DNA of 62,279 bases, filler included, from Basidiobolus ranarum (lineage: Eukaryota), in the NCBI GenBank assembly GCA_040143965.1. It is 28 parts of 28 records of this genome, joined end to end, with 100 filler letters (N's around TTAATTAATTAA, not from the genome) between each part and the next. Parts side by side here need not be neighbours in the genome. Positions count along the whole stretch, not along the records: positions 24,580 to 26,709 come from JASJQH010010615.1; positions 26,810 to 28,939 come from JASJQH010010616.1; 26 more parts are not named here. One strand, 5' to 3'. The translations under genes were made by a program, and so were the position numbers. The notes under the pieces are model-generated. The model had not been told where the DNA came from and made no database searches. It worked only from the letters and a program-made list of their open reading frames with translations. Positions 7,361-60,034 of the stretch are shown piece after piece; the stretch's first letter is position 1, and the number at the start of each line of letters is the position of its first letter.

Positions 7361-7846
7361 TCAGAATTTGGGAAGAATGGTGAAGGGACCAGATATAGCA
7401 AAAAGTGTGGGTTGTTGAGGGTTTGACTTGGAACTGGTAGTAACACGGATGTAGTATAGATTCGGGTTTACGCCTTTCTCCTTAATATCAGGAACTCTCC
7501 AAGTGTAAGTGAAGGTTGTGCTCGGAATATGATCAACTATTTTGGTGCTATAGGCGCTTTTGATTAAAGGTGCTCCACTCGCAAAGCCGTACTCGAGACT
7601 GTTGTACAAACGTAGATCAAAATCCCCAATTTTATCGCCGCTAGCGCCACATTCACCTATTGCCCACTTAAGTTCGATCTTCTCTCCAACTCTCAATTTC
7701 GAGCCAATTTTAGGCGTATCAAAGATCAAGCAAGAGTAGTCTCGCTTTCCCCAAGCCAATTTCTTGTCAAACTCAGCGATTGCCTCGGCAGGCCAACAAA
7801 AGCAAACGGTCATGAGCAGAGCTAGGAACAGATTGAACTTGATCAT
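7361..7846 (-). CDS. Small secreted protein, Kre9/Knh1-type (PF10342-like) Ig-like domain, 161 aa, intronless
   Basis: Hydrophobic signal peptide, KR site, GEKIELKW...TYTWRVP...YYIRV...SGPFTI pattern; CpG retained. Confidence 0.8.
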   Translation of the reverse strand: MIKFNLFLALLMTVCFCWPAEAIAEFDKKLAWGKRDYSCLIFDTPKIGSKLRVGEKIELKWAIGECGASGDKIGDFDLRLYNSLEYGFASGAPLIKSAYSTKIVDHIPSTTFTYTWRVPDIKEKGVNPNLYYIRVTTSSKSNPQQPTLFAISGPFTILPKF

Positions 7847-7944
7847 GGTAAAGGAAGTGATTTCTTGCTCGTACTCCTAGGAGTTGTTAATCATTTATAC
7901 ACTACCATCACATGTTAGTAATCCACGACGCTTGGCTTGAGAGA

Positions 7945-9207: not shown

Positions 9208-10071
9208 AAAAACAGGCTCAACTACATGTAATACTCATGATCCAGATGGACTATATCCCTTGCACAGAGCCTATTACTTCTATATACACAAAGGCTCTAA
9301 TCAGAGATATTATATTTATATATCCAATCAACATGCCATCTACATATGTAAGGAAACCATATATTAACTATATGAGAGGGAATACTGTTCACTTTCTGTG
9401 TTTAACCAACTAAACACTTGTTATATAGTTAACCAAGATGCCAAGTAAGTCTAGTAGACCCCAGCAGAATCAATTGACTATGGCATACCTAAGCACTCTT
9501 GGGTGTTTTCAAGCATAGCCAAGTGAGAATCAGGTATTCACATGTTGTACAACTGCAAAATCAATCCTAAGTTGAAATTAGTATTGCTTGAGGACCTATA
9601 GAATCATATATAGCTTAGTATTTAGTTATGTTGTACAATTAACATTTTTCCACAGTTTGGCTAAACTCAGTTATAATACATATATCAGAAGCAGAAAGCA
9701 GCATATCTATGGGCCCTGTATTCTGTTTGGAAAATCTCTATATCTTTATAATCAGTGTGTTTTATTATCCTCACTTATCTATTATATTTATAACATAGAC
9801 TGCTGAATATCTTGGACAATTAATTTTCTCCTTGGCTATATAAGTGACCATATTCTCTTATAGATAATGTTACTAAAACACTGCCTCTAGTACATAAAGT
9901 CTACCAATTGATGTCTGGTTCTTCCAATAAGGTATCCTATATTCTACTAAGACATCCCACATAATTCTCAATTGGAATTTACTTGTAATATCTTACTAGC
10001 TTAGAAGTTTGATGATTTCTACACTTTGAGAACTGGTGCTAGAAGCCCCAAACTTAAACACATGTTCCTGG

Positions 10072-11084
10072 TGTTGAAATTAGCATTGCCTAAACATCTA
10101 TATAGTCATATATAGCTTAGTACTTAGTTATCTTATATTTTGCTAAGAAATTATCCATTATTCTCAATTGGAATTTACTTGGAATATTTTTACCAACTTA
10201 AAAGTTCTTGGATATATAGATTTATCAAACCTATGCTAGAAGCCCCAGACTTTGCACACATGTTCCTGGGACCTTCTGTAATAAATTCTACAAGTTGGTG
10301 TGCTTACATCTTGACAAAACTAGATATGTCAACTTTCTACTAAATAAATCAATAAGTGAAAACCGCTAATTCCTCTAATTCTCCAAACCACTTCCAACAG
10401 GCTCCCAAATACTTTAAAAGCTTATGAGCCCAAAGCTTGTGCTCTCTGTAATGTCTACTTCTCAAACTTATGGAACTTTTCCCTCTTTGGAATAATTGGA
10501 AGGAGCCAATTATCAAGTTTGGAAAGTTAAAATGAAAATGCTGCTGCAAGAAAAAGGACTTTGGGACACTGTTGCAGGAGAAGAAAAAAAGCAAAACTAT
10601 CTGAAACTAAAGTTTTACTCCAGGTTAAAAAAGAATAAAGTTCCTCTAACACAATTTGTCTTAATGTTCAAGACAAATTGCTAATTCAATGTTCAAGAGC
10701 TAAAACTGCCAAGAAGGTGTGGAATGCCTTGGAAGATACCTCCCAAACAAGTACTACTGCCAACAAGAATTTTCTAAGAAGACAATTGCTTAACTTAAAG
10801 ATGAAGCCAGGAGACAACATTAAATCACTGATTAACAGAGTCACTATTTTAGTTGATGAAATGAAATGCATGGAAGTACCTACTACTGATCAAGATATCA
10901 TAGTTACAGTCCTGAACAGCCTGCCACACAAGTTTTAGAGCTTAGTAATGGCTCTAGAATCAAGAACTGAAAATTTGACCTCAAATTATGTATTGAGCAG
11001 ACTTCTGGATCAAGATTTATACAAATCAGGATCCAACCTAAAGAATGAAGAAAATCCTTTAATAGGCTATGGGAAACCTTCCTA
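10072..11084 (+). mobile_element. Ty1/copia 5' LTR-A (10072-10419), PBS (10420-10431), frameshifted gag
   Basis: NYQVWKVKMKMLLQEKGLWDTV; AKKVWNALE...LLNLKMKPGD...VLNSLP (UBN2-type gag). Confidence 0.9.
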
Positions 11085-13418: not shown

Positions 13419-15551
13419 GAGCACATTGAAGAGAGCCCTTTGTTGGCAGGTTAATATACTCTGGAGTCTCCTTAACCCATTGCATTACATCCATCACTGA
13501 TTTTACTGATACATTGTTAATCAGATTAGAATATGGTAATACTGATAACTTACTCTGTGTCTATGCATTAATATACTTGATGGATATCACTACCAGAATC
13601 TGAAAAGTCAAGGTTTCTTTGAGAACATGTATGATCATGCATTTACAATGGCTCCGGATGGTTTCTTGCTAAACAAATATACCATTGTAAAGACTTGCTT
13701 GCCAATAATTTTAATCAGCTTAAATCTTCTTCCTCTGAATGGTATAAGAGTCATAATATTTTGATACTATCCTCATATCTGGACCTAAATCACCAGTGCT
13801 TATAGATAGCTTTTTTGACCCATGATTGCGGAATTTAATGGTCATCTAATGTGGTTCAGATGGGTGAATATTTAATTAAAGCTAATACCATTGTATTTAT
13901 TAGCGACACTGCTGCCATCAGTAAACTTGGAGGTTTTTGTTGGTACAAAGCACTATCTTGTGGCAGATTTTGTCAAATCAATGGAGTCTACGCAATCCGG
14001 CAAACACATTACTACAATTCAAATACAATACTAAACTCCATGATTAACATCAAGAGCTTGGTCAGATTTCAATACAATCATCAATATTAATTCACCAAAT
14101 AGTCAGTCTAACATAAAACTTAGTATCAGCTGTAAGCCTAAGATTATATTGCTAAAGGGGTTCAGTTGGAGCCAGAGCTTCCCATTAGGCACCATGCACT
14201 TACTATTAAACAACATTCTGATACTATTTACCCAGCTATATAGTGGAAAACTCAATATGAATGAGCCATTTAAGATAGGATCAAAGTTTGAATTGATTTG
14301 GAAACTGCATGGAAACGTTAAGATACAATCATATTTTACCAGGCCTCCCATCAATATCAACTCATCTAGGTGCTTATTCAAATCCCAAGACTGGAAGTTT
14401 TGCATTTGTATATATCCAAGTGGAATCTTGAAAAGATTTCTGCCTGATAAGTATTGGCAACATTGGGAGTTGTTTGTAGATATTGTTAATACATTCTTAT
14501 GCCATCAACTCACTTTGGCAGATCTCAGGCAGATACAGCAACTGTGCAAATATTTTGTAATTGGATATGCAAAACTCTATTACAGGCTTAAAGAAGATAA
14601 AATGATTCTATGCTGGGATTCAACACACTCCCTGCTGCATCTTTCCTAATGCTTAAAGATTATAGGCCCTTGCTATGCATTTTGGGAGTTCCTAATGGAG
14701 TGCACCAGTGGTGAAATGATGCTCTGTATGAAATAGTCAGTATTACAATATGTTAATATGATCAATAATGTATCAGCAAAATCAGTGGTTGATGTAATGC
14801 AATGGATTAAAGAGACTCCAGAGTATATTAACATTTCAACAAAGGGCTCTTTTCAATGTGCTCATGGGTTTTCACATTGTTCAAGAACAATAACAGCAAC
14901 AAAGCTCAATCCATGGACACAGAGAAAGTGCCTTTATAATTAGGACTAATTTATTTGTGTAATAATCTGCCGGTACTTTTAGGAAAATTGCAAGGCAGAC
15001 TTCCTGGTGAGATAGATGGAGATGTGCAGTATTATTGTTTTAGCCATGAGGTAATCTATTCAAGTAATGACACATCTACTTGTGGCATGACATTTGTTGA
15101 CTGCAAGTCAGGGATATATTGGCTGAATACTTTACAGAAACTTGCCAAAGTCCAAGAGCTAATTCCAATTGTGAATGGTAACAAGTATTAGCTATTTGCC
15201 AAGTGTCAGTGCTGTTTGAAATTTCAGATGTTAAGCCATTGTTCACTATTAGTTGGCTGGTAAAGCATATTGATGTTGTTAAGTTATGTCTGATCAGTCA
15301 AGTAAGTGCATATGTAGAGACTAAATACAACAAGATTCTTGTGTTTTTTGATTCTCATTATGGCTGGAATACAAAGCTTATGTTCAATCTAATCTTAGCA
15401 ACCAGATGTTTGTTGGTTTTCTTACCCTTTTACCACAGTTGATTGGCAACTGTTGATTGCCACAGACATGGTACAAGTGGAAAATACTTGTTAAGTGTAT
15501 GACTTATATTCCTTCTGTAATTAGACTACCTTCAAGTCCAAATGGATTTTT
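13419..15551 (+). mobile_element. Rearranged CACTA/EnSpm transposase pseudogene
   Basis: DTAAISKLGGF..CRFCQING, FPLGTMHLL, LPDKYWQHW and HSLLHL motifs; inverted piece at 13419-13555. Confidence 0.85.
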
Positions 15552-20116: not shown

Positions 20117-21200
20117 AATCTGTGTGCAAAGTGTGGGGCTTCTCACCCAAGTTTGAAAAATCTATATATCTGAGAACTTCCAAGTTGGTAAGAAAAATTT
20201 CAAATATATTCCAATTGAGTATAATTGATAATAGCTTAGTGAAATATAAGATAATTATACACTATGCTATATATGACTATACAGGGGCTTAGGAAAAGTT
20301 AATTTCAACACCAGGAATATATGCACAGAGCTTGGGGCTTCTAGCACAAATTTGAAGAATCTTTATATCTGAGAACATCTAAGTTGATAACAATATTCCA
20401 AATAAACTCCAATTGAGAATAATTGATCATATCCTAGTGAAATATAAGATAATTGAACACTAAGCTATATATGACTATATAGATGTCTAGGAAAAGCTAA
20501 TTTCAACACCAGGAACATATGCGCAAAGTTTGGGGCTTCTAGCACAAGTTTGAAAAATATATATATCTGAGAACTTCACAGTTGGAAAAATATATATATC
20601 TGAGAACTTCACAGTTGGAAAAAAATATTCCAAGTAAATTCCAATTGAGAATAATTGATAATAGCTTAGTGAAATATAAGATAATTAAACACTAAGCTAT
20701 ATAAGACTATACAGGTGCTTGGGAATAGCTAATTTCCACACCAGGAACATATGTACTAAATCTGGTGCTTCTATCACAAGTTTGAGAAATCTTTATATCT
20801 CAGAAATTCTAAGTTGATAAAAATTTTCCAAATAAATTCCAATTGAAAATAATTGATAATATCCTAGTGAAATATAAGATAATTGAACACTAAGCTATAT
20901 ATGACTATACAGTTGTCTAGGAAAAGCTAATTTCAACACCAGGAACATATGCACAAAGTTTGTGGCTTCTAGCACAAGTAGGAAAGTATATATATCCGAG
21001 AGCTGCTAAATTGGTACAAATTTCTAAGAGATTTCTGATTGAGAATTATAGGTAATATGTTATTGAAATATTGGGTAGCTAAATACTATGCTATATATGA
21101 AAATAAAGGTGCTTAGGTGATGCTAATATCAGCAATGTCTTAGTGTGATATAGGATCACCAAATACTAAGCTATGTATGACTATATAGGTGCATAAGCAT
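20117..21200 (-). repeat. Tandem array of about five ~198-bp units derived from the 5' (U3) part of copia LTR-A
   Basis: Unit junctions TTT(C)AACA|CCAGGAA at 20310, 20508, 20740 and 20938. Confidence 0.85.
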
Positions 21201-24479: not shown

Positions 24480-26964
24480 NNNNNNNNNNNNNNNNNNNNN
24501 NNNNNNNNNNNNNNNNNNNNNNNTTAATTAATTAANNNNNNNNNNNNNNNNNNNNNNNNNNNNNNNNNNNNNNNNNNNNGAAAATGTGATTGGATAGATA
24601 GATAGATAGATAAGTGAGTCATGCATCAGCTGAAGTCTTGGCAGTGAAAGATCATTGGTTAGGAATCTTGTGACTCAAATTGATTTGTGTTTAGGCAGAT
24701 GACTCAGAGATTAATACTGATTGGGAATTAGCAATGTGTCTTCAATATAAAGACAAATTATGTTAAAGGCACTTTGTTCTTTTTTGACCTAGAGTAAAAC
24801 TTTGGTTTCAGATAGTTTTGCATTGTTTTTAGAAATTCTAAGTGTAGTGACAATGTTCTAAGTAAATTCCTTATGAGAATAATGGATAATATCTTAGTGA
24901 AATAAAAGATAACTAAGTAGTAAGCTATATATGACTATATAGGTGTTTAGGCAATGCTAATTTCAACAACTATGAGTATACATTCACAAACAAAACTAAC
25001 ATGAACATTTAAGTATCATATGTTGATTACTTGCCACATCTCTTAAACAGAAGGGGTAAAATTAGTGCTTGAAGTGGGATAATAACAAAGAGGCACTCCC
25101 ATAATATAGATGAATCCTATACCTACCAAAGCCTCTTATGTTTAGGAGGTATTTAGCTTGAACCATATGAAAGGGACATAATCATTCAAGGAAATTGTTT
25201 ATTCGACAATAAACAAAGTTGTTGCCCTAGGCTGTTACATGGACGTACATCTTCGTAGTAGATATTTGAATGTTGAAGAGAATCTATCAACTGAATTCGG
25301 GAATAAGCCTCAAAAAACGAACGTTATGTACATGTATAGAAAATGGAAAGTGGGATATGGGGCAATCGAGGATCATGTGAACACATTCATTCTTGATGCT
25401 CACTGTTTCCCACAGCTAGTCCAGTTTGTTATCAGAGCTCTAGTCGCGCGACAAGTATTAGTGGGAAGATTTTTACAGTCAGCAATGTTCCGCTTGCTTA
25501 TTCATCCGGCTCCACTCCACCATCCAACATTGCCGCCCGACTGTACTTGAAGGAGACAATAGCCATTTATGGACGATGCTTAAATTGAATAGTGAGATAT
25601 ACCAAGATGTCCATAGTATCTCTGTCGCCCAGCAGCACTGTTTTGGAAGTTCAACAAAGATGTCAAATTAAAGCTCATCAACCCATTTGTTACCAACATT
25701 CGAGAACAGTAGTTCTGGTTCCATTCCACTCACAGCAGGTTTTATACTTATCTGGATGTAAAAACTGCTCTAATTAATTCCAATTTGGGGTGCCTACCTT
25801 AATTGACAACCATTGTGGTGGGTTCCATAGCTGTCAAATTAGAAATGGTAGTCGCTAGGATATATTCGTTCTCCCACGCAGGAGACAAAACATTTGAAGA
25901 CGCATTTTGAATGCAGAGCTGTCTGAAGAACGTATATCCATTGTTATGAACGATCCAAATGGTAATGGGCGAGGAATATGAATGGCCAGGCTCTCCTCTA
26001 AATTGATGACCAAAAAGGCTCTTTACTGATCTCTAACTAGACATGCCTATCTGTATCAACCATTGCTTGCTGCTTTTCCTCTTAGCTACCTGTGCTGTTT
26101 AACGAAGGAGACCAATTAAAGGGGATTCCTGATATTCTGTTTTAAGCTTTCGTTAGCAATTAGATTTGCATGTGTTCTCACTAAACAGTCGGAACCACTC
26201 AAAACAATGGTCAAATCCAGACAACAAGCATTGGATCTGTGCTAGATATCACCTGACCAACAACCGATCCGTGACTTCTGTGAGACCCACTCGAATGTTC
26301 AACACCAATCACCAAGGACTGGGCTTGTACAAGCTGGGAAAGCGAGGAAGGTGTTTGTGGTGAAGCGTGAGAGTTATGCGCAACAGATGCACTTAGCCTT
26401 GTTTTTAATCTCATGCAGCGTTCGCACAGTAGAGGAATTTTCGAGATCTGTCCTGGGATCAGAAACCAGGATAGGATGCTAAATATAGACATGGCCATGG
26501 TTTCAACGGGATGATTGGACAGAAACAAAAAGCAAAACTAGTATTTACTAGTAAGGCACGACGAGGGGTGTGGAAGAGACCGAGAGCACGAATGGAAGCG
26601 TTCGAATCGATCTCGCCTCCCCACCCACTTCCTTAAGAACACGCGGTCACTGCAGGAAATATAAGGGCATCTGAGCGATTCCACCGAAGCACCCATTCGT
26701 AGTGGAGATNNNNNNNNNNNNNNNNNNNNNNNNNNNNNNNNNNNNNNNNNNNNTTAATTAATTAANNNNNNNNNNNNNNNNNNNNNNNNNNNNNNNNNNN
26801 NNNNNNNNNCAACAGTGTCCCAAAGTCCTTTTTCTTGCAGCAGCATTTTCATTTTAATTTTTCAAACTTGATCATTGGTTCCATCCAATTTTTCAGAAGA
26901 GGGAAAAGTTTGATAAATTGGAGAAGCAGACATTACAGAGAGTGCAAGCTTGGGGCTCATAACC

Positions 26965-27297
26965 TGTTGAAATTATTTAGGGAGAAATATTGGTCTGGCC
27001 AGGATTTGAACCTGGGGCCTCCTTCACTCTAGCAAGGTGCTCTAACCACTGAGCTACCAGTCCTTGTATGCTATGCCTATATTGCTAGGGAACCTTAACC
27101 TAGTCTGTCAATGTATGGTACTTTGGCATTTCAGCTATACAAGCAACTGATTGGCCTTAGACTTTGTGTTCAGATGCAGTCACCATACTCCATATTTTCC
27201 TCTTTGGGAATTACTGCTTGTACCACAAGTCACCAGACTTTCAACATTCCCCCTCAAGCAGGATTTCCGGATTTAGCACTAACCGGGGCTCATAACC
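26965..27297 (-). mobile_element. TRIM-like unit: PBS (27285-27297), short spacer, PPT (27247-27258), 282-bp LTR-B (26965-27246) containing a tRNA-like sequence
   Basis: LTR bounded by TGTTGAAA...TTTCAACA; PPT CTTGAGGGGGAA; PBS GGTTATGAGCCCC on both sides. Confidence 0.8.
26991..27063 (-). tRNA. tRNA-like sequence (pseudo-tRNA, nominal anticodon AGA) inside LTR-B
   Basis: GGACTGG TA GCTC AGTGGTTA GAGC A CCTTG CTAGAGT GAAGG AGGCC CCAGG TTCAAAT CCTGG CCAGACC A, 73 nt. Perfect D and T stems and intact A/B boxes; one mismatch each in acceptor and anticodon stems; short variable arm unlike true tRNA-Ser. Confidence 0.8.
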
Positions 27298-27645
27298 TGT
27301 TAAAGTATTTGGGAGCCTGTTGGAAGTGGTTTGGAGAATTAGAGGAATTGGTGGTTTTCACTTATTGATTTATTGAGTAGAAAGTTGACATTTATAGTTT
27401 TGTCAAGATGTAGACAAGCTAACATATAGAATGTATTAAGGAAGGTCCCAGGAACATGTGTGCAAAGTTTGCGGCTTCTAGCACAAGTTTGAAAAACCTA
27501 TATATCTGAGAACTTCTAGGTTGGTAAGAAAATTCTAAGGAAATTCTGATTGAGAATCATGGATAATATCTTAGTGAGTTATAAGCTAATTAAGTACTAG
27601 GCTATATATGACTATATAGGTGTTTAGGCAAAGCTAATTTCAACA
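27298..27645 (-). mobile_element. Copia LTR-A (5' LTR); gag start of the same family at 26810-26950
   Basis: Full 348-bp TG...CA LTR adjacent to a PBS. Confidence 0.9.
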
Positions 27646-27764
27646 AGATCATGCCACACAATCCAGCCTGCTAACACACTATCTGGCACAATCTGCCAGT
27701 TACCATGGCTAGGCCCTATAACACACAATCAGAGACTATAAGGAACAATATGGCACTATCCCAC

Positions 27765-28939
27765 TGTTAAAGTACTTGGGAGCCGGTTGGAATTGGTTTG
27801 GAGAATTAAAGGAATTGGTGGTTTTCACTTATTGACTTATTGAGTAGAAAGTTGACATTTATAGTTTTGTCATGATGTAAACAGACTAATATGTAGAATG
27901 TGTTAAGGAAGGTCCCAGCAACATGTGTGCAAAGCTTGGGGCTTCTAGCACTAGTTTGAAGAATATATATATCTGAGAAATTTTAAGTTGGTAAAAATAA
28001 TTGAAGTAAATTCCAATTGAGAATAATGGATAATATCTTAATTCAATATAAGATAACTAAGTACTAAGCTATATATGTCTATATAGGTATTTAGGCAATG
28101 CTACTATCAACACTCTCCCTCAACTAAATAGTCATATAAACTAATCCTAATAAAGGTCTGAATTTCTCAAATTTGTGTCTAGCTAATGGTTTGGTTAATA
28201 TATCAGCAATCATGTCTTCAGCAGAAAAAAAAGTTAAGTCAATAAACTTATTCTCTACAGTCCTCTGATGAAGTGATGCTTAATATTTATATGTTTGATT
28301 CTATTATGAAACATGGGATTTTTTGCCAATATTATACAACTTTGATTATCTTGAAATATTGTAGTTGGTGAATTTTGAGAATAACCGATATTTGTTAAGA
28401 GTCTTGTTAACCATATTGCTTCTTTTGTTGCTTCTCAGGTAGCCGTGTATTCTGCTTCTGTTGTTGAAAGTGCTACAGTAGGTTTTTTCTTTGAATTCCA
28501 ACCAATAGCTCCATTACAGCAAAGATATAAGTACCCTATTGTAGATTTCCTGTCTTGAATATCTCTTGCCCAATTTGCATGTGAATATTCTATCAGAACA
28601 GAGTTTGATCCAGAATATGTGTATTTTAAGCACAGAACCACTGTATCTTTCAAATATCGGAAAATCCACTTATCTGCTATGATTTGATCAGATCCATAAT
28701 TTTGAAGATATTGGCACATACCTCCCACAGAATATGCAATATCTGGCCATGTTCTAACCATGATATACATGAAGTTACCAACCATAGATTGATAAGGAAA
28801 TTTCTGGCTTTCACTTGAATTCAAAAATATCTGATTTGAGCCATTTTTGGTCAAGTTAAGATTTGTCTCCATTGGGGTAGATACTGGATTACATTCTTCC
28901 ATTTTAAACTTCTTTAGTATATCTAGGATATACTTAGAC
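27765..28939 (-). mobile_element. Copia 3' end: RT/RNase H pseudogene, PPT (28113-28125), 3' LTR-A (27765-28112)
   Basis: MEECNPVSTPME, PYQSMVG, DRKSTIGY, VALSTTEAEY, MIADILTKPL; PPT AGTTGAGGGAGAG. Confidence 0.92.
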
Positions 28940-31267: not shown

Positions 31268-32793
31268 ATGATGAATCAAGTCATCCTGATCATAACTAGC
31301 ATACTGCAGATTGATTGTTCATCAAGTGATGTGATTTGTCACTGGTGTGCCAAAACTACTGGTGTTTCATAATGCTGGAGCTGTTGGGCTCAATTGAAGA
31401 TCAGGATATTATGTCAGTGAGAGACAAATGATTGGCCTAAAAATATGTGAATGTCTAGGTTATGCATTTGATTGGGTAGGTTACAGTATAAATTGCTTAT
31501 TGTTATACATTCAGTAATTAAGAAGTTACAAATTAGGGGATGAACTTGCTTTGTCAGTTGCCCAAACTCTTAAATTGGCAATACTAAATTGGATAACTTG
31601 GTATGGGCTGGCATAATATCTCCAAAAAAAGCATCATGTCCTATTGTGATGGGATAGTGCTATATTGTTCCTTATAGTGACCAATTGAGTGCTATAGGAC
31701 CTAGCAATGGTAATTGACAGATTGTGCCAGATAGCAAAGTAGCCATTTTGATAGTTGATGATCTTAAATATGTTTCTGTTAAACTTTGCTCAACTATTGA
31801 TTTACTATGCAATTAGGGGATTACAATCTCTCCACTTACACTATTGCTGGAAAGGAACAAATCTAATAAGTTGATCAATGCTTTTTCATTAATTGAGATT
31901 GTTTCCTGCATATTAAAACCCTCCAAAGTGGAGAGTGGATTGCTAGGCTGCTCATCAATTAAGTACTCTGTTCTTGCTGGTTTTTCTCCTTTGGTGCCAG
32001 CAGGCTTTTGCTTTGAAGGTAATTTTTATTTAGATTTTGAATGCCATTTGAATGACATTGAAATTTTCAGATGGTAAACTTGCAGTAATGAAATTGCTTA
32101 GAAACAGTTTATAATAAGCCAAAATTGCAATCCATTACCAGAAATATCTTGCAAATTCCCTGATGACTCAACTGTGGCACCATCTCAGAAGCAGCTAATG
32201 ATACTGATGAGATATACCTAAACTACCAACTTAACATGCAAGGTATTCTTAGTTCTACAATATCCTGGTCATGCTGCAACATAAACATTTTGAGAAGCCC
32301 TGCTATTGTTGTCACAAATTCTGTTGCTATGAAAGCTGGAGGCTTCAAAAAAAAAATCACAAGGATGGTCACTGTACAAAGCCACCAGCTGCACAAAGCC
32401 TGGTGAATATCAACAGTAATAAGTGCACAGAATTGACCTTAGTTTTACCCACTGAGTCTACTGGCTGTGCTTTGCCTCAAAGTTTTAATTACATTGCCAA
32501 AAGTCAAGATACCATGGAGTTGCCACAGTAATGTGATCATAATGATGTAGGTAGAAATTTAACTTTGATCAAAACACTGAGTCCGGACCACTTAGAGGAC
32601 ATGTTGCTTAATGTTGACCTCAGTTATTCCAGTACTGATAGTAGTATATCAGAAGTTGAAGAAGATAATGGTCTTTTTATGAACACTTTGTTAATGGCAA
32701 GCATTAGTCCACTCATAAGACTTACAGTAAAGGAAGCAGCTTTGATTATTGAGGAGTGGAGAGTTCAATCCAATTGTAGCAACCAGGTGTTTA
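31268..32793 (+). mobile_element. CACTA-like element, upstream region and transposase N-terminus
   Basis: SPLIRLTVKEAALIIEEWRVQSN, shared with the 5594, 45996 and 51514 copies. Confidence 0.75.
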
Positions 32794-33395
32794 TGTTGAA
32801 ATTAGGTCAATAGCAACTCATTATTTAGTAGTTAGTTTATTCAAATTCTGTTTATTTAGCACTCAATTCTGTTATTCAAAAATGTGTGTTTATTGCTCTA
32901 ATTGACAGAAATATCAATTAGATCACTTTTACCAATTTTCACTATTTTCTCAAAACTTCTCCAAATCAACTCAAATTTTCACCCATGCTTAACAGTCATG
33001 TTTGTTATGATCTAAGCACGTCCAATAGTCCTATTTCATAGTAAACTATAAATAGGACATATTCAAATCAATAAAACTTAAGTGTCTAATTCACTAATCC
33101 AAATCTTGTCCAAAACACTTCCAAATCCCCTAAACACTTTTATCAGGTTATGAGCCCCAAGCAAGCTGTTAAAGGAATGTCTACCAGTACTATTACCAAT
33201 GTATTGCATCCACAGAGAAGTTTGATGGTGAAGACTTTCACCTTTGGAAGCTCAAGATGCAAATGGTGCTAGAAGACAAGGACCTTTGGGGATTTGTTAC
33301 AGGAGAAGAAATAGAGCCCAAGGGACCACCAGAAGCTATCCTTGCCTTTCACAAGAAGCAGCGGAAAGCACTCTCCACACTTTTCCTACATCTCA
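32794..33395 (+). mobile_element. Copia family D: LTR (32794-33145), PBS GGTTATGAGCCCC (33146-33158), gag start
   Basis: EKFDGEDFHLWKLKMQMVLEDKDLWGFV. Confidence 0.9.
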
Positions 33396-40173: not shown

Positions 40174-42298
40174 CTCAATTTGGCATGCATTATTCACTAT
40201 CTGGCAATTTTTACAAAAATATAATTTTTGAATGGCAAATTACTGGGTTTACTGCTGTAGGAATTTGAATTTATATGCATGCCTTTATTTAGATATTTTA
40301 GGCTTTGTATTCCAGCCATAATGAGAATCAAAAAATAAAAGAATCTTGTTGTGTTTAGTCTCTACATGTGCACATATTTGACTTATTAGACATAACTCAA
40401 CAACATCAATATGCTTTACCAGCAAACTAATGGTGGAAAAATTGCTAAACATCTGAGATTTTTAATAGCACTGACACTTGGCAAATAGCTGACTCTTGTT
40501 ACCATTCACAATGAGAATAAGCTCTTGGATTTTTGCAAATTTCCGTAAAGAATTCAGCCAATATATCACCAACTTGCAGTCAACAAATGTCCTGCCACAA
40601 TTAGATGTGTCATTGCTGGAATAGATTACCCCATGGCTAAAACAATAATACTGTGTATCTCCATCTATCTCACCAAGAAGTCTGTCTTGCAGCTTTCCTA
40701 AAAATACCATCAGATTATCACACAAGCAAATTAGTCCAATTATAAAGGTACTTACTCTGTGTCCATGGATTGGGCTTTGTTGCTGTTATTGTGCTCAAAC
40801 AATGCAAAAACCCGTGAGCACATTGAAAAGAGCCCTTTGTTGGCAGGTGAATATACTCTGGAGTCTCCTTAACCCATCGCATTACATCCATCACTGATTT
40901 TGCTGATACATTGTTAATCAGATTAGCATACGGTAATACTGACGATTTCACACGGAGCATCATTTCACCGCAGGTGCGCTCCATTGGGAACTCCCAGAAT
41001 GTATAGCAAGGGCCTATAATCTCTAAGCATTGTGAAAGATGCAGCAGGGAATGTATTGAATACCGGCATAGATTCAGTCTATCTTCTTTAAACCTGTAAT
41101 AAAGTTTTTCATATCCAATTACAAAATCTTTGCACAGTCGCTGTATCTGCCTGAGATCTGCCAATGTGAGTTGATGCCGCAAGAATATATTAATACTTCC
41201 AGTCTTTGCATTTGAATACATGCCTAGATGAGTGGATATTGATGGGAGTCCTGGTAAAATATGAGGGTATCTTGACATTTTCAAATATCTACCCAATTGA
41301 TTCAAACTTTGATCCCATCTTGAATGGCTCATTCGTATTAAATTTTCCACTATATATCTGAGTTAGTAGTATTGGAATGTTGTTGAATAGTAAGTTCATA
41401 GTGACTAATGGGAAGCTCTGGTTCCAGCTGATCCCCTTTAGCAATATAAACTTAGGCTTATGCTAATACCAAGTTGGATGTTAGACTGACTATTTGGTGA
41501 ATTCATATTAGTGATCATGTTGAAATCTGACCAGGCTCTTGATAGTAAAATCATGAAGTTTAGTGTTGTACTTGGATAGTAGTAATGCATATGCCTGTTA
41601 GAGTAAACTCCATTGATTTGACAAAATCTACAGTAAGATAGTGCATTGTGCCCACAAAAACCTCCAAGTTTACTGGTGGCAGGAGTGTCACCTATACATA
41701 CAATGATATTAGCTTTAACAAAATATTGACCCATCTGAACCCCATTTCATAACTGTTCAAATTCCGCAATTCAAGGCTCCAAGAAGCTACCTATAAGCAC
41801 TGGTGATTTTGGGCCAGAGATGATGGATAGTATCAATATATTATGACTCTTATACCATTCAGATGCAGGAATATTTAAGTTGATTAAAATTATTGGCCAG
41901 CAAGCCTTTCCAATGGTATATTTGTTTAGTGAGAAACCATCCAGAGCCAATGCATATGTATGATCATACATGTTCTCAAAGAGACCTTGACCTTTCAGAT
42001 TCTGGTAGTAAGCTGCTTCCTTTACAGTAAGTGTTATGAGTGGACTAATGTTTGCTGATAACAAATAGTCCATTACATTACCATCATCTTCTTCTTCAAC
42101 TTCTGATATATGATCATTGGTATGGGAATAACCAAGGTCAAAATCTAGCACCAAGTCCTCAAAGTTGTCTGGACTTACTGGTTCAATCAAAGTTGCATTT
42201 TGACCTACATCATTCTGGTCATATAACTGTGGTAACTCCACAGTATCTTGACTTTTGGCAGTGTTACCAAAGCTTTGAGGCAAACTACAGTCAGTGGA
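40174..42298 (-). mobile_element. Best-preserved CACTA/EnSpm transposase pseudogene, with internal deletions
   Basis: LALDGFSL..KACWPIILINLNIP..ILILSIISGPKSP, GDTPATSKLGGFCGHNALSYCRFC, FWEFPMERTCG. Confidence 0.9.
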
Positions 42299-44621: not shown

Positions 44622-46500
44622 AAATTCTACTTAAATATATACAAATCCATTACTTCCAGTCTTTGCATTTGAATAAATGCCTAGGTGAGTGGATATTGAT
44701 GGGAGTCCTGGTAAAAATATGTTGGTATGTTGACATTTTCAAGCATTTTCCCAAATGATTCAAACTTTGATCCTATATCAAATAGCTCATTCATATTGAA
44801 TTTTCCACTATATAGCTGTGCAAGTTTCATTGGAATGTAGTTGAATAGTAGGTGCACAGTACCTAATGGGAAGTTCTGGCTCCAGCTGATCCTCTTTAGC
44901 AATATAATCTTGGGTTTACAGCTAATACTAAGTTTGATGTTAGACTGACTATTTAGTGAATTGATATCATTAATCATGTTGAAATCTGACCAAATTCTTG
45001 ATGGTAGAATTATGGAGCTTAGTGTTGTGTTTGGATTGTAGTAATGCATATGCCTGAAAGAGTAAACTCCATTGGTTTGACAAAATCTAAAGCAAGATAG
45101 GGCATTGTGCCTGCAAAAACCTCCAAGTTTAATCATGGCAGGAGTGTCACCAATATATACAATGATATTAGCTTTGATAAAATATTCACCCATCAGAACC
45201 ACATTAGATTACCACTCAAATTCCACAATCAAAGGCCCCAAGAAGCTATTGATGAGCACTGGTGATTTAGGTCCTGATATGATGGATAGTATCAAAATAT
45301 TATGACTCTTATACCATTCAGAAGGAGGAATATTTAAGTTGATTAAGATTATTGGCCAGCAAGCCTTTCCAATGGTATATATGTTTAGTGAGAAACCATC
45401 CAGAGCCAATGCAAATGCATGATAATAAGTGTTCTCAAAGAAACCTTGACTTTTCAGATTGTAGAGGAAGAATTAAGTTTATTAACACTATTGGCCAGCA
45501 AGCCTTTCCAACAGTATATTTGTTTAGTGAGAAGCAATTCAGAGCCAATGCAAATACATGGTCATATGTGTTCTCAGAGATACCTTAACTTTTCAGACTC
45601 TGGTAGTGATATCCATCAAGTATATTGGTTATACCATCAGCTTTATGGTGAGTACTTTGGTATTGGATCAAAGATCTATATTTGGGAGATTTCATCAAAA
45701 CTTGAAGATGGCAAATCAATGGTATGTAAGCCCAATATGAACAATATTTACCTGATTCAGTGATTGCCAATTGTGTGCAAACAGTACATGACTTCAGGTT
45801 TTTCAGATCACCAGTCAAAGCCAAACAACCATTTGGACATGAAGGTAGTTTACTTACTGAAGGATTATAAGTCATACAATTGATAAGTGTTTTCCACTTG
45901 TACCAAGTCAGTGGCTAGCAACAGTTGCCAATCAACTGCAGTAAAAGTGTAAGAAAACTAATAAACACCTTATTGCTAAGATTGGATTGAAGTCTCTACT
46001 CCTTAATAATCAAAGCTGCTTCCTTTACAGTAAGTGTTATAAGTGGACTTATGTTTGCCAATAGCAAAGAGTCCATAATAAAACCATCATCTTCTTCTTC
46101 AACTTCTGATATACTACCATTGGTACTGGAATAACCAAGGTCAACATCTAGCAGCAAGTCCTCAAAGTTGTCTGGATTTGCTGGTTTGACCAAAGTTGCA
46201 TTTCTACCCACATCATTCCAGTCATATAACTGTGGTAACTCCATGGTATCTTGACTTTTGGCAGTGTTACCAATACTTTGAGGCAAAGCACAGTCAGTGG
46301 ACTTAATGAGCAAAACTAGAGTTGATTTAGTGCACTCATTACTGTCGTCATACACTAGGCTTTGGGCAGCTGGTGGCTTAGACAGTGACCATGCTTGTGA
46401 TTATTTTTTTTATGAAGCCTCTGGCTTTCATAGTACAAGAAATTGTGACAATAATAGCAGGACTTCTTTAAACATTTGTGTTGCAGCCTGAGAAGGCTAT
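44622..46500 (-). mobile_element. CACTA/EnSpm transposase pseudogene with an internal ~130-bp duplication
   Basis: Same motifs as the 40174 copy; the LALDGF-CWP segment occurs twice at 45330-45600; left-end-like terminus at 46525-46744. Confidence 0.85.
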
Positions 46501-46844: not shown

Positions 46845-47354
46845 AGTTCGCTGTTGGCCAACGGCTTCCAATGCCTTGATGACACCGTCAGTGTCACCAT
46901 TCATGTCCCGATAGCACCGCCCAAGGTTAGCGCCAACAACGGTTCCAACAGCTTTAATGCGACGCTCGGTCATAGCAGCGTTTACGGCGTAGCCTCCGCC
47001 AGCACATACACCCAATACACCAATTCGATTTTCATCAACGTATGGAAGCGTTATGAGGTAATCTACTGCGCAACGGATATCTTCTACACGTGCTGCCGGT
47101 TCTTCAATATACCGAGGGTTACCTTCGCTCTCACCTTGATACGAGGCATCGAATACTAATGTGATATAACCAATTTCTGCTAGTTTCTCGGCATAAAGGC
47201 CTGCTGTTTGATTTTTGCAGCTGCTACCAGGGTGAACACAAACAATTGCGGGAAGTTTGTCAGTTTCTTTTAGATTGTGTGGAGTGTTCAAGATACCAGC
47301 GATTTTGAGACCATGGTGGTCAAAGGTCACATTTTGCTTTTTTACGTTCGTCAT
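46845..47354 (-). CDS. Alpha/beta hydrolase, bacterial YcjY/COG1073-like, 3'-truncated by contig end
   Basis: PAIVCVHPGSSCKNQTAGLYA, FDASYQGESEG.PR, nucleophile elbow GVCAGGGY; no introns. Confidence 0.9.
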
Positions 47355-48033
47355 TATCTTCTTGCTTTACTTAGGTGTGACTAGGGAAAGATACTGTTTT
47401 AAGATACAAGAGTCCCTGAACTGGTTGGCTTATATGGCGTTTTATATCATGTGATAGTGATGATTCACTGCGGTATGTTGATTGGCTATTTATCAGAATT
47501 TTCTTTCCACGATGGGCCTAGTCATTTCAAGACAGTATCCTCGAAATTAGGCCAGAAATTAGGTCAAGAATTTTACCGCTTGGTCATGACAACAAATAGG
47601 TTGAGAATAATAAGTTTATAAAACAGTAATTAACAAATATCTGAGATATAGATATTTTTGAATATTCTGGAACGATTTGGTTTCCCGATACGTACCATGA
47701 AATGCTAGATGTGTGCCATATTTCAACTGGATGCTATAACTGGATGTTTCAACTATACCGGATGACGTGATATCTGTATCTGGTGACTTTTCTAAATTCG
47801 CCCTAGTGATTTCGCACTACGTGATGGCAGGGAAAGTAAATTTATATCTTTGTTACCTCGTAATGTAAGAATCAACGTTTGAGCTGTGTATGATAAGAAC
47901 TATAATCCGTATGTTCAGTCGGATAAAAAATTCTAATTTAGTCCTGCTTCAGTGTTTCCAGAACAAGATACAGAGTCCAATTGCAATAGTATTGATGCAC
48001 TAGGAACAAATATCTCCATTTTGCCTCTTAATA

Positions 48034-50409: not shown

Positions 50410-51187
50410 TTAGGAGCGATTAAGAGCAGCAGATGCTTCAGCTTGCTTGACCAAGTTCTCAGGAGCATCCAACCAGTCCATCATCAACTCCACAAGATTG
50501 ATCTTGTCACTGTGAGACTCGATCTTCTTCAAGACTTGTTCGAATTCACCAGCAGTATTGGCACGACCTTGGAAACCAATCTTGTCTTGTCCAGCAACAC
50601 CACCGAAGTAGTCAAGAGTCTTGCTGAAGTCCCAGTTGTCAATGTCGTTGTAGGTACGCTTGACTCCATGGATCAAACGTTCAATGGTGTATCCGTTGTT
50701 GTTCAACAAGAAGATGACTGGACGGAGACCAAGACGAATCATGACAGACACTTCTTGGCAAGTAAGTTGGAAACTACCATCACCAACGAACAAGATCACA
50801 CGACGAGATCCACCACCAACAGCAGCTCCGAGAGTAGCTCCAACAGTGTAACCAATGGAACCCCAGAGAATTTGAGAGATGAAGGTAGCTCCTTCAGGCA
50901 AGTGAGAGTTCAAAGCACCGAAGACTGAAGTACCAGTCTCAGCGACAACAATATCGTCAGCCTTGAAGAACTTGCTCATTCTAGGCCAGAACCAAGCTTG
51001 AGGAACCATCTCCTTCATATCAATTTGAGGAAGCTCCTTAACGGGAACAGCGGGGCACTTGAACTCACGCTTAGGAATGGCAGCAGCAAGCTTAGGCAAC
51101 AAGTACTTCATACCAACAGCCTTGTAGGTACCGAAGAAGACATCAGTGTAGTCAGAGTGAATCTCAACAGTCTTCTCAGTATCCATA
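50410..51187 (-). CDS. PDC: Pyruvate decarboxylase, C-terminal part
   Basis: AETGTSVFG, SQILWGSIGYTVGA, TPP motif GDGSFQLT...NNNGYTIERLIHG; strong codon bias. Confidence 0.95.
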
Positions 51188-51287: not shown

Positions 51288-52865
51288 AAGGAGGAAGATT
51301 TAAGCTAAACAAAATTAGTGGCCAGCAAGCCTTTGCAGTGGTATATTTGTTTAGTGAGGAACCATTCATTGCCAATGCATATGCATTATTATTCATGTTC
51401 TCAAAGAAACCTTGACTTTTCAGATTCTGGGAGTGATATCCATCAAGTATATTGGTAATACCATCAGCTCTATGGTGGGTACTTTGGTAATGGATTAATG
51501 ATCTATATTTGGCTCATTTCATTAAAACTTTCAAACAAGAATTCAATGTTATGAAAGCCAAATATGAATGATACTTACCTGATTTAGTGATTGCCAATTG
51601 GGTGCTAACAGTACATGACTGCAGGTTTTTCAGATCACCAGTAAAAGCCAAACAACTATTTGGATATGAAGGTAGTTTCATTACTGAAGGATTATAAGTT
51701 ATACAATTGACAAGTGTTTTCCACTTGTACCAGGTCTGTGTCAAGCAACATTTTCCAATCAATTGTGGTAAAAGTGTAAGAAAGTCAATAAACACCTGGT
51801 TGCTATGATTGGATTGAACTCTCCACTCCTCAATAATCAAAGCTGCCTCCCTTACTGTAAGTGTTATGAGTGGACTAATGCTTGCCAATAACAAAGAGTC
51901 TGCAACAAAACCTTTGTCTTCTTCTTCAACTTCTGATATACTACCATCAGTACTATAATAACCAAGGTTAACATCTAGCATTATGTCCTCAAGGTTGTCT
52001 GGACTTACTGGTTTGATAAAAGTTGCATCTCTACCTACATCATTCTGGTCATAAAATTGTGGTAACTCCCCTGTAACTTGACTTTTTGCATTGTTACCAA
52101 AACTTTAAGTCAAAGCACAGCCAGTGTACTCAGTGGGCAAAACTAAAGTTGAAGTTGTGCACTTATTACTGTTGATATTCACTTGGGTTTGTGCAGCTGG
52201 TGGCTTTGTATAGTGACCATGCTTGTGATTAGTTTTTTTATGAAGCATCCAACATTCATAGCACCAGAATTGGTGATGATGATAGTATAAAAAAAATATT
52301 TTAAAAAGTTTTAGTCCGAGACAAAGTTTTGGATTAAAAAAAAGTTTAGTTCAGAAAAGTTTTAGTCCGCTACATAAAGGAAGTATTTGAGGTATTGCCC
52401 ATCAATATCATCAGCTGATTCTGAGATGGTGTCATAGATGAGTCATCTAGGGATTTACAAGATATTTCCTGTAATGGATGGCAATTTTGATTCATTATAA
52501 GCTGTTTCTAAGTAATTTCACTACACCTAGTTTATCATGTGAAAGTTTCAATTCAATTCAAAAAGCATTCAAAATCAAAATTGGTTTCTAAGCAACAGCC
52601 TGCTGGGACAAAAGGAAAAAAGCAGCAACAACAGAGTACTTCAATGTTGAGCAGTCTAGTGATCCACTATCCAACTCTGGAAGGCATTAACCTGCTGGAA
52701 ACTAACTCAAGTCATGATGAAGCATTGATCAGTATACCAGATGTGTTCCTTTCTACTGATAGTGCAAGTGAAGAGATTGTAATCCCCAAAATATGTAGTA
52801 AATCAATAGTTGAGCAAAGTTTAAGAGACACACCATCAAGATCATTTACTTCTCAAATGGCTACT
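51288..52865 (-). mobile_element. CACTA-like transposase 5' half plus divergent upstream ORF remnant (52539-52868 +)
   Basis: Collinear with the reverse complement of 31740-32793. Confidence 0.8.
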
Positions 52866-57945: not shown

Positions 57946-60034
57946 ACTTGGAAATCAGTCGATTACTGACCCCTAGTCCAGTTCTATCTGAACCTAATCC
58001 GATTAAGGGTTCTTCAGGTCCAGATTCCGGAAATGTGTCTTACACTAATCGAGTCTATGGTCCCTCACAACTACAGGCCCCTTCCAATTTCAAACTCGAT
58101 AGTGAAAAACCTAGTGATACGAAAACTTACATGAATTTAGGAGCCCCTGCACAGCAATTAAATATCACAAGTAATAATACTACCAGTTATAATATCACAC
58201 CATTATCCAATTCACCACCAAGTAGTAGTGCCCATTTCGAATCAAAGAACTGGAACTATCTACAAAACTCAACTACTCAAAGTGAAAGTATCTCGGTCAG
58301 TACTAAACCGTCCAAGACAGAACAAATACGTCAATTTGGAACTTTCCTTCCTCTTAGTCCAGAAAAGAACCAACATTGTGAGTCAACTGAACCTGAAATG
58401 GCAAGAGCACAGCTTTTGAAACAAACTTCACCAGTTAATAATTTCCCTTCTCCCCTTGATAACTCTCGAAAATACACTGGAGGTACTCGAACTGCAGAGA
58501 GTTTGACTAATTTCATGAACTCTGACTTCACACCATCTCCCTCCACGCAAGGTACTCCTGTATATGAGGCATATTCAGAGGAAAAACCTTATCACACAAA
58601 CAGTTTCAATACTTCGGAGAATACCTCGACAACTAAATTTGGTACCCACGTGAACTCTTCGACCTTATTGAACACATGTCCCGAAAACGGCAACTCTATA
58701 TTCGAGGAGAGGTTATGTAGTGAATTTGATGAGGAGGAAGACGACAGACACTCCAGTGATAAGTTCGACACCTTGAAAAAGTTCCCAGTGACCGAATTCC
58801 TTCCTGAAGCCGAAATGTTCCACACACACAAGGAAGTCATAAATTATAGCGCTACGTCCAAAGCCGTTCTGTGGAGCAATGTACAAAAAGTTGTATCAGA
58901 GAAAACGGAATATCTGACCAAAGAGGACTCCACTTCCCCCAACTTGAAGACATTACAAAAGAAACAAACTGATCCAGAGAAAATCAAACTCCTTCAAGCT
59001 CTGCTTTTATTGAAAGAACAATTGACTAAAGCTCAGGTTGACCTTCTATACCAATGATCATAAGAAAAGCACCCTTTATTGAACTTTAATCCTTTCATCC
59101 TTAGGTAAAAGTGACTCAAAATTGTGACTATGCCGCTCAAAGAATCTCTGATGGAGAGAAACACCGTCAGGTGGCTCTTCAAGAGGCAGCTTATCTTAGA
59201 ATGAAAATCTCAGCCATGAATAGTTCTTCCACAGAAAGCCTTTGTAAAATTGAACAAGATCGAATCATCGAATTGGAAAAAAGACTTGCTAAAGCACTCG
59301 CTGAGAATCAATCTCTTCTATCTAGAATTGATCTTCAGGCGCAAGCGTCTGCTAAAGATCATGAGAATCGGTTGCTTGCTGAAGAAAGCTCTAAAACTAA
59401 CTTGAATAGAGCCATTGAGGCGGAGAATAGTTGTCGCGATGTGAAAGAAAAATCTATAGCTTTGGAAGATACGCTGAAAAAATCCCAACAAGCGGTCTGC
59501 GAAGCTAACAACCAAGTGTCCAAAGCTGAAGCAAATCTGCATGCTAAAGAGACTGAAGTCACAGTAATACTTGAACGTTTAGCCTCGTTGGAGGAAACCT
59601 CGGCTCAAGAAATGCAGGCCAGAGAATTAGCCTCCAATGTGGTCAATGCAGCTAACGAGCGAGCCAATGAGGCCGAAAGGATGTGGATGGACGCACAACA
59701 AGAAATCCAGGCACTTGAGAAAGAGTCCATAGAACTTCGCAAAACAATCGAGCAGAAATCTGAAGAATTGGCCAGAACACATTTCCAAGCAGGCGAAATG
59801 GAAACTCTATGGCTCACTACCAAGAAACAACTAGAGACACTGGACTCAATTTCACAAGTTTTCCATAACTCTAAGAATCATTCTGAAGGAGGAATTGAAG
59901 AGAAATTGACGCGTGCCAACTATCGTATAGCAGAGCTTGAGGCTGAATTAGTGCTGTACTCCCAAGAGAGGGGGTGGAGAATGATCTACTTCAATAGTTT
60001 TCGCGGAATACCAGCTATTTCCAAGTTCGATTAG
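57946..60034 (+). CDS. Ser/Thr/Pro-rich plus long coiled-coil protein, Tea1/Kel1-like C-terminal region (partial); intron 59037-59104
   Basis: GT...TAG intron joins the 369-aa and 307-aa ORFs in frame. LLQALLLLKEQL...AAQRISDGEKHRQVALQEAAYLRMKI...RIIELEKRLAKAL resembles fungal kelch cell-end markers; no kelch repeats are in this contig. Confidence 0.65.

Follow-up and report, generated by a model that had tools for sequence, protein, structure and literature searches.

A probable Helenus-type TRIM monomer joined to a Copia retrotransposon at a shared primer-binding site in Basidiobolus ranarum

On one short contig of the Basidiobolus ranarum assembly GCA_040143965.1 (JASJQH010010616.1), a Copia retrotransposon carries, between its 5′ long terminal repeat (LTR) and its leader and gag gene, a 333-bp insert that corresponds to one circularly permuted monomer of a tRNA-bearing terminal-repeat retrotransposon in miniature (TRIM), consisting of an unrelated LTR, a primer-binding site (PBS), 27 nt of spacer and a polypurine tract (PPT), with the PBS of the Copia element duplicated. 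We consider it probable that this structure is real and that recombination of some kind, guided by homology at the PBS, produced it. The window, by which we mean the whole stretch of DNA that was analysed, is 62,279 bases long with a GC content of about 34%, and joins 28 unplaced parts, from 2139 down to 2117 bp in length, by linkers of the form N44-TTAATTAATTAA-N44 (for example, 26710-26809). Neighbouring parts of the window are mutually uninformative, and the true context of the chimera is the part at 26810-28939 (2,130 bases); statements below on the copy number of the TRIM LTR and on tRNA matches cover the window.

Read along the minus strand, the chimera begins with LTR-A, the 348-bp 5′ LTR of the Copia element (TGTTGAAA...TTTAACA, 27645-27298), which can be aligned to two canonical copies at their LTR ends, and continues into a first PBS of 13 nt (GGTTATGAGCCCC, 27297-27285), a 27-nt internal spacer of Helenus type that has its sole copy within the window here (27284-27258), an 11-nt PPT (TTGAGGGGGAA, 27257-27247) and the 282-bp LTR-B (TGTTGAAA...TTTCAACA, 27246-26965), whose ends form a terminal inverted repeat of 8 nt. 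A tRNA-like sequence in sense orientation (27063-26991) lies towards the 3′ end of LTR-B and finishes 26 nt before the end of the LTR. There follow a second PBS identical to the first (26964-26952, repeat family D20) and the Copia leader and start of gag (26951-26810), in which the ATG at 26933-26931 opens a frame that meets a TGA at codon 24 (26864-26862) and of which only 124 nt precede the end of the part at 26810. LTR-B thus lies between two internal domains, PBS-27 nt-PPT on one side and PBS-leader-gag on the other. This order had been proposed in a first-pass annotation of the window, together with a 282-bp LTR-B unrelated to LTR-A and a permuted TRIM monomer with a 13-bp PBS duplicated, and direct reading and alignment bear out all three; the spacer, given there as about 26 nt, is in fact 27 nt, while the 51-bp interior from PBS to PPT was correctly stated.

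Alignment of the LTR-A/PBS/leader junctions in the window places the chimera against its own family: two of three such junctions are canonical (at 10420 in contig 5 and near 678 in contig 1), and the third carries the 333-bp insert with its duplicated PBS. The leader and gag start are 88% identical to 10413-10574, a copy whose downstream open reading frames (ORFs) match DUF4219 (E 4.2e-09) and Retrotran_gag_2 (E 1.5e-23), and LTR-A adjoins an unrelated repeat exactly at its initial TG, as is expected of an integrated element. Both junctions between the unit and the Copia element are clean and fall at canonical LTR/PBS borders, where the exact repeat amounts to 17 nt (AACA plus the PBS). The two LTRs appear essentially unrelated in their bodies, their ends excepted, with a global identity of 52.7% as against 49.0 ± 1.25% in 200 shuffles and with GC contents of 42.9% (LTR-B) and 33.3% (LTR-A). 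Common to the Helenus-type unit and the Copia element are the LTR ends and the PPT core TTGAGGG.

No 5-bp target-site duplication (TSD) surrounds LTR-B, the flanks being GGGAA and GGTTA. This excludes insertion by integrase of a full element or of one reduced to a solo LTR, and a nested insertion followed by deletion could not have put the Copia PBS and leader directly after LTR-B. Taken together, the missing TSD, the clean canonical borders and the 17 shared nucleotides point to a homology-guided event and not to integrase, and they fit the earlier suggestion of recombination, or of a template switch by reverse transcriptase, at the shared PBS.

The unit of LTR-B, PBS, 27 nt and PPT is, in our judgement, very probably a Helenus-type TRIM. 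TRIMs whose LTRs hold sequence derived from tRNA are called Helenus, and 113 Helenus families occur in rust fungi (Pucciniales); the fungal families make 5-bp TSDs, have also been described in tandem arrays, and are probably mobilized by Copia elements with the same unusual PBS (Kojima, 2024, PMC10886601). The first-pass annotation had used this name for tRNA-bearing TRIMs, and rightly so. Comparisons with Data S1 and Table S1 of that study refer to the portions of those files covered here. As in LTR-B, the tRNA-like sequence of these elements (TRIMp3), with its boxes A and B, sits near the 3′ end of an LTR of 110-285 bp; in the Data S1 records the LTRs start with TGTTGA or a close variant and end in ACA, the tRNA-like part lies 20-40 nt before the LTR end, and the PPTs end in GGGGGAA, GGGGGGG or similar. 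The unit described here has the same LTR ends, an internal portion starting with the same GGTTATGAGCCC, the same G-rich end of the PPT, no coding capacity, a PBS type common with Copia, and a predicted AGA anticodon at odds with the tRNA body. Its PBS and PPT both adjoin LTR-B directly, and LTR-B itself holds a tRNA-derived sequence with box A-like and box B-like motifs. By eye, LTR-B resembles Helenus-4_PGr, Helenus-2_MLP and Helenus-4_CroRib in the flank preceding the tRNA, in the T arm and acceptor 3′ strand, and in the tail, and the tRNA-like body resembles Helenus-1_AmAr; the comparison of LTR-B with the published consensuses was made by exact words and by eye. The unit differs from these elements in having a single LTR-B that is not flanked by a TSD, and in that the 13th base of its PBS is C and not A. 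Exact-word checks of Data S1 indicate that no published Helenus family in the portion covered is identical to it.

A further comparison is with Cassandra TRIMs, which, in the published descriptions covered here, carry a small-RNA gene sequence with boxes for RNA polymerase III (Pol III) in each LTR, much as LTR-B does. In Cassandra, however, the small RNA is 5S rRNA, the PBS (TGGTATCAGAGC) corresponds to the 3′ end of the initiator methionine tRNA (tRNA-iMet), and the lineage is that of plants, whereas the unit here carries a tRNA-like sequence; Rfam found no 5S rRNA match in the window at the gathering threshold nor at E up to 1.

The tRNA-like sequence is reported by ARAGORN on the minus strand at 27063-26991 with anticodon AGA and by Rfam at the same position (58.6 bits, E 4.2e-10), and is the sole tRNA match in the window by either program or by a permissive Rfam scan. 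An Rfam hit to ‘Plastid-ycf2’ on the opposite strand (27.2 bits; gathering score 65.7) was rejected as the antisense of the same sequence. Complete from the acceptor 5′ strand to the acceptor 3′ strand, the sequence has a box A-like TAGCTCAGTGG and a box B-like GGTTCAAATCC, in which TAGCT..TGG and GGTTC agree with the Kojima definitions of box A (TRGCY...YGG) and box B (GGTTC). Its variable region is 5 nt long, and two of its pairs, located in the stems of the acceptor and the anticodon, are non-standard. A functional tRNA gene would be expected to have intact stems and to draw its anticodon and its body from a single isotype, a combination that was not seen at 27063-26991. Serine tRNA requires a long extra arm. 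A working tRNA is unlikely here, given the AGA anticodon, the short variable region, the non-standard pairs and a fold energy at the level of shuffles. Many Helenus elements likewise inflate tRNA gene predictions, including ‘tRNA-Ser-AGA’ pseudo-genes (Kojima, 2024, PMC10886601). A 20-nt word from the tRNA-like part had no match in viral contigs and none in prokaryote genome contigs, and its single match in metagenome contigs was dismissed as chance, since the matching locus lacks a tRNA and resembles the query nowhere outside that word; none of the three collections is expected to contain the source genome.

These features also bear on whether LTR-B is a TRIM LTR at all. It might instead represent a host tRNA-gene region that was captured, or a short interspersed nuclear element (SINE) of tRNA origin, inside a variant leader of Copia, a reading with which the single copy of LTR-B in the window and the completeness of its tRNA-like sequence would agree. 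We regard this as very improbable: LTR-B has TG...CA ends and a terminal inverted repeat, it is bordered by a PPT immediately ahead and a PBS immediately behind, there is no A-rich tail or tail of the type left by long interspersed nuclear elements, and an AGA anticodon with so short a variable region is unfit for a serine tRNA. In addition, the whole design agrees with the published Helenus records, as far as those covered here go.

The first-pass annotation had also remarked that the arrangement places a Pol III promoter immediately upstream of PBS and gag. Motifs like the A and B boxes are indeed present there, yet no functional consequence is evident from their position, because gag is already broken and a transcript would stop within about 160 nt. 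LTR-B has no run of four T residues (T4), and the first T4 after the start of the tRNA-like sequence lies at 26907-26904, in gag codons 9-10, so a Pol III transcript would end there if that run terminates it. We also weighed self-priming by the embedded sequence and dismissed it, since its anticodon region has no complementarity to the PBS; published Helenus families likewise have no such complementarity between tRNA-like sequence and PBS (Kojima, 2024, PMC10886601).

The PBS itself ties the unit both to Helenus and to Copia. Its 12-mer, allowing at most one mismatch, occurs four times in the window against an expectation of 0.17, a count that none of 100 shuffles reached, and every one of the four occurrences lies directly 3′ of an LTR end. 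The reverse complement, GGGGCTCATAACC, has CAT in a context like that of an anticodon loop, and judged from this likeness the PBS matches the loop that bears the anticodon in tRNA-iMet and not a tRNA 3′ end, a feature absent from the first-pass annotation. In Kojima Data S1 the corresponding 12-mer occurs 48 times, and among the matches listed all 29 begin an internal-portion record. The window also holds a second Copia family, at 32786-33395, with an unrelated LTR body, an LTR start of TGTTGAAATTAG, a PBS of the identical 13 nt at 33146-33158, and a gag start that matches DUF4219. The putative anticodon-loop PBS thus appears common to at least two Copia families in the window.

Several observations weigh against the readings offered here and should be set beside the evidence for them. 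With respect to the Helenus assignment, neither the exact 13-mer of the PBS, with its final C, nor a 12-mer taken from the anticodon arm occurs in the portion of Data S1 covered, and the 51-bp interior is shorter than the minimum of 75 among the Table S1 rows compared. The minimum-energy fold of the tRNA-like sequence is a cloverleaf, but its energy is no better than that of shuffles (z -0.03). The published consensuses compared have a T4 just after the tRNA-like part and LTR-B has none, and because of this the copy looks decayed, or terminates poorly. Furthermore, the 28 parts contain no second LTR-B or other Helenus piece, and the paired LTR-B/51 bp/LTR-B arrangement, which as a canonical element would measure 282+51+282 = 615 bp, within the limit of about 1 kb that applies to Helenus TRIMs, was never seen in them. 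With respect to the origin of the chimera, its 3′ LTR and 3′ flank lie beyond the end of the part at 26810, and the contig is a 2.1-kb, unplaced one made up of repeats throughout.

How the homology-guided event took place can be considered in terms of reverse transcription or of recombination after integration. Seventeen nucleotides is short for chromosomal homologous recombination, and is sufficient for a strand switch by reverse transcriptase. We favour reverse transcription with a template switch guided by the PBS, a route to which we would give close to, though just under, an even chance, because entry into Copia particles is in any case needed for Helenus RNA to move, because the shared stretch is short for a chromosomal crossover, and because strand switching is the published explanation of complex LTR elements. 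Specifically, a single Copia particle would have packaged both Helenus RNA and Copia RNA. Synthesis of minus-strand DNA along the Copia RNA would have reached the PBS and, rather than ending there, switched at the shared AACA plus PBS to the Helenus RNA; U5-R would then have been copied, followed by an R-mediated jump to the Helenus 3′ end and by U3, the PPT and the spacer, with synthesis stopping at the Helenus PBS. Next, strong-stop DNA of the plus strand, derived from the Copia 3′ end, would have annealed to this PBS, and the product, LTR-A/PBS/27 nt/PPT/LTR-B/PBS/gag-pol/LTR-A, would have been inserted as one unit by integrase, the copy decaying later. It is possible, and we suggest it tentatively as the more doubtful part of this account, that the contig is a fossil of such a heterodimeric particle, which held RNA from Helenus, a TRIM of Pol III type, together with Copia RNA, the two being linked through a strand switch guided by the PBS.

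The alternative that ranks second behind the template switch is a single crossover at the PBS after integration, between a resident Copia element and either an extrachromosomal Helenus circle with one LTR or an array of Helenus elements in tandem. Such a crossover yields exactly the observed order, with a duplicated PBS and no TSD; LTR retrotransposition normally yields circles of this kind as by-products, and tandem arrays are on record in Helenus, as noted above. The features of the contig do not separate this route from reverse transcription. It would, however, have had just 17 nt of exact homology at its disposal, which is very short for a chromosomal event, and we consider it unlikely.

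Less likely still is an artefact of assembly, in which the assembler's path crossed a collapsed PBS node two times, so that a genuine Helenus element (LTR-B/PBS/27 nt/PPT/LTR-B) was threaded into a genuine Copia element (LTR-A/PBS/leader). The contig, at 2,130 bp, is unplaced and repeat-only, and one among similar ones, and its path enters and leaves the shared PBS by each way exactly once, as a wrong traversal of the graph would. This would nevertheless require a word or overlap length of at most 17, which would be unusually small for a large repeat-rich genome, and the lack of any further Helenus material in the other parts also speaks against it. We therefore hold an artefact to be improbable, and return to the template switch as the favoured reading.

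Template switching between co-packaged RNAs has been put forward to explain complex LTR elements that have a common internal LTR (Sabot & Schulman, 2007, PMC1950507; Kalendar, 2020, PMC7215508), and the diagnostics of a single reverse-transcription event are a flanking TSD and near-identical outer LTRs (PMC1950507). In the portions of these papers covered here, complex elements resemble the chimera in having an internal LTR between two internal domains and an origin by strand switch. They differ from it in that their internal LTR is related to the outer one, whereas LTR-B is unrelated to LTR-A, and in that the switch in complex and tandem elements occurs in the R region, whereas the switch point here would be the PBS. 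Tandemly arranged or chimeric TRIMs have also been reported (Kalendar, 2020, PMC7215508; sugar beet study, 2026, PMC13570524), among them some whose LTRs came from other families (PMC13570524). Unlike the complex, tandem and chimeric cases in the portions covered, the partners here are a TRIM of Pol III type and an autonomous Copia element with unrelated LTRs.

The remainder of the contig is likewise repeats. Upstream of the chimera on the minus strand, the ORF list gives a decayed C-terminal fragment of Copia pol (28938-28438), after which the reading frame hits an in-frame stop and shifts ahead of the PPT; a feature search placed it nearest to clusters of ‘Pol polyprotein from transposon TNT 1-94’ (score 0.95), and a Pfam search of the fragment gave no match. 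The PPT of this upstream element (TTGAGGGAGAG, 28123-28113, minus strand), to be compared with that of the Helenus-type unit, adjoins the TG start of its 3′ LTR, LTR-A′ (28112-27765, minus strand; repeat families D5, D7 and D11), which has 87.4% identity to LTR-A. The 119 bp between LTR-A′ and LTR-A (27764-27646, minus strand) are a piece of another repeat that hosts both Copia insertions, as 85 nt of this spacer have 87% identity to 31650-31734 on the plus strand. The two Copia elements of the contig therefore lie in the same orientation, 119 bp apart, in one repeat, of which 31650-31734 is an uninterrupted copy, and by eye an LTR-A-like element in contig 1 (1040-1100) apparently sits in the same repeat.

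Elsewhere in the window, the 5′ part of the LTR-A family is seen at 20150-21134 as five tandem copies that recur every 196-232 bp (assigned to repeat families D2, D3 and D4), and a partial LTR piece stands directly before the LTR start at 10070. Beyond the LTR elements, decayed ORFs of one DNA-transposon-like family share recurring motifs at 14044-14646, 40721-41362, 41774-42298, 44684-45208 and 51517-52104, and one of them has a weak match to Transposase_21 (tnp2) at 23.8 bits, below the cut-off. Three host gene fragments lie on the minus strand, one with a TPP-enzyme C-terminal domain (50413-51186, E 1.3e-16), one with a dienelactone-hydrolase-type fold (46845-47366, E 2.7e-09) and one with a borderline Kre9/KNH-like domain (7364-7876, 24.5 bits, where the cut-off is 24.6). 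This weak hit, the GC content and, most of all, the likeness to Helenus of rust fungi would, taken by themselves, suggest a fungal source, most likely in or near the Pucciniales. On the plus strand, 57948-60031 contains two long open frames (369 and 309 aa) that match no Pfam family and lie in a region of 41% GC, the second being rich in coiled-coil-like repeats of E, K, L and A.

The kind of element, the PBS type and the dependence on Copia were already known from rust fungi, and it is the joining of a permuted monomer to a Copia element that may be new; a full-text literature search of limited coverage did not find a case in which a permuted monomer of Helenus is fused at the PBS with an autonomous Copia element. 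How the dependence of Helenus on its helper is maintained is not known, and support for that dependence consists of the sequence likeness of one Helenus to one Copia (Kojima, 2024, PMC10886601). The first-pass annotation took the chimera to point to the helper family. Physical linkage does favour the family of LTR-A, but the shared signals are not specific to it: in the second Copia family (32786-33158) the PBS is identical and the LTR likewise starts with TGTTGAAATTAG, and for this reason the LTR-A family is not singled out, a further point to be counted with those listed above. One decayed copy on an unplaced contig is a lead and not a result. As a practical matter, such units add false tRNA gene predictions and complicate the annotation of LTRs. 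A chimera with both junctions at a shared PBS would be direct structural evidence that two RNAs had met in one particle, and would mark the PBS as a point of recombination. If the reading given here is true, this would be the first physical link of a Helenus family to a particular Copia lineage, and it would offer a route by which TRIMs and their helpers could exchange PBS, PPT and LTR-end signals and so stay matched over time.

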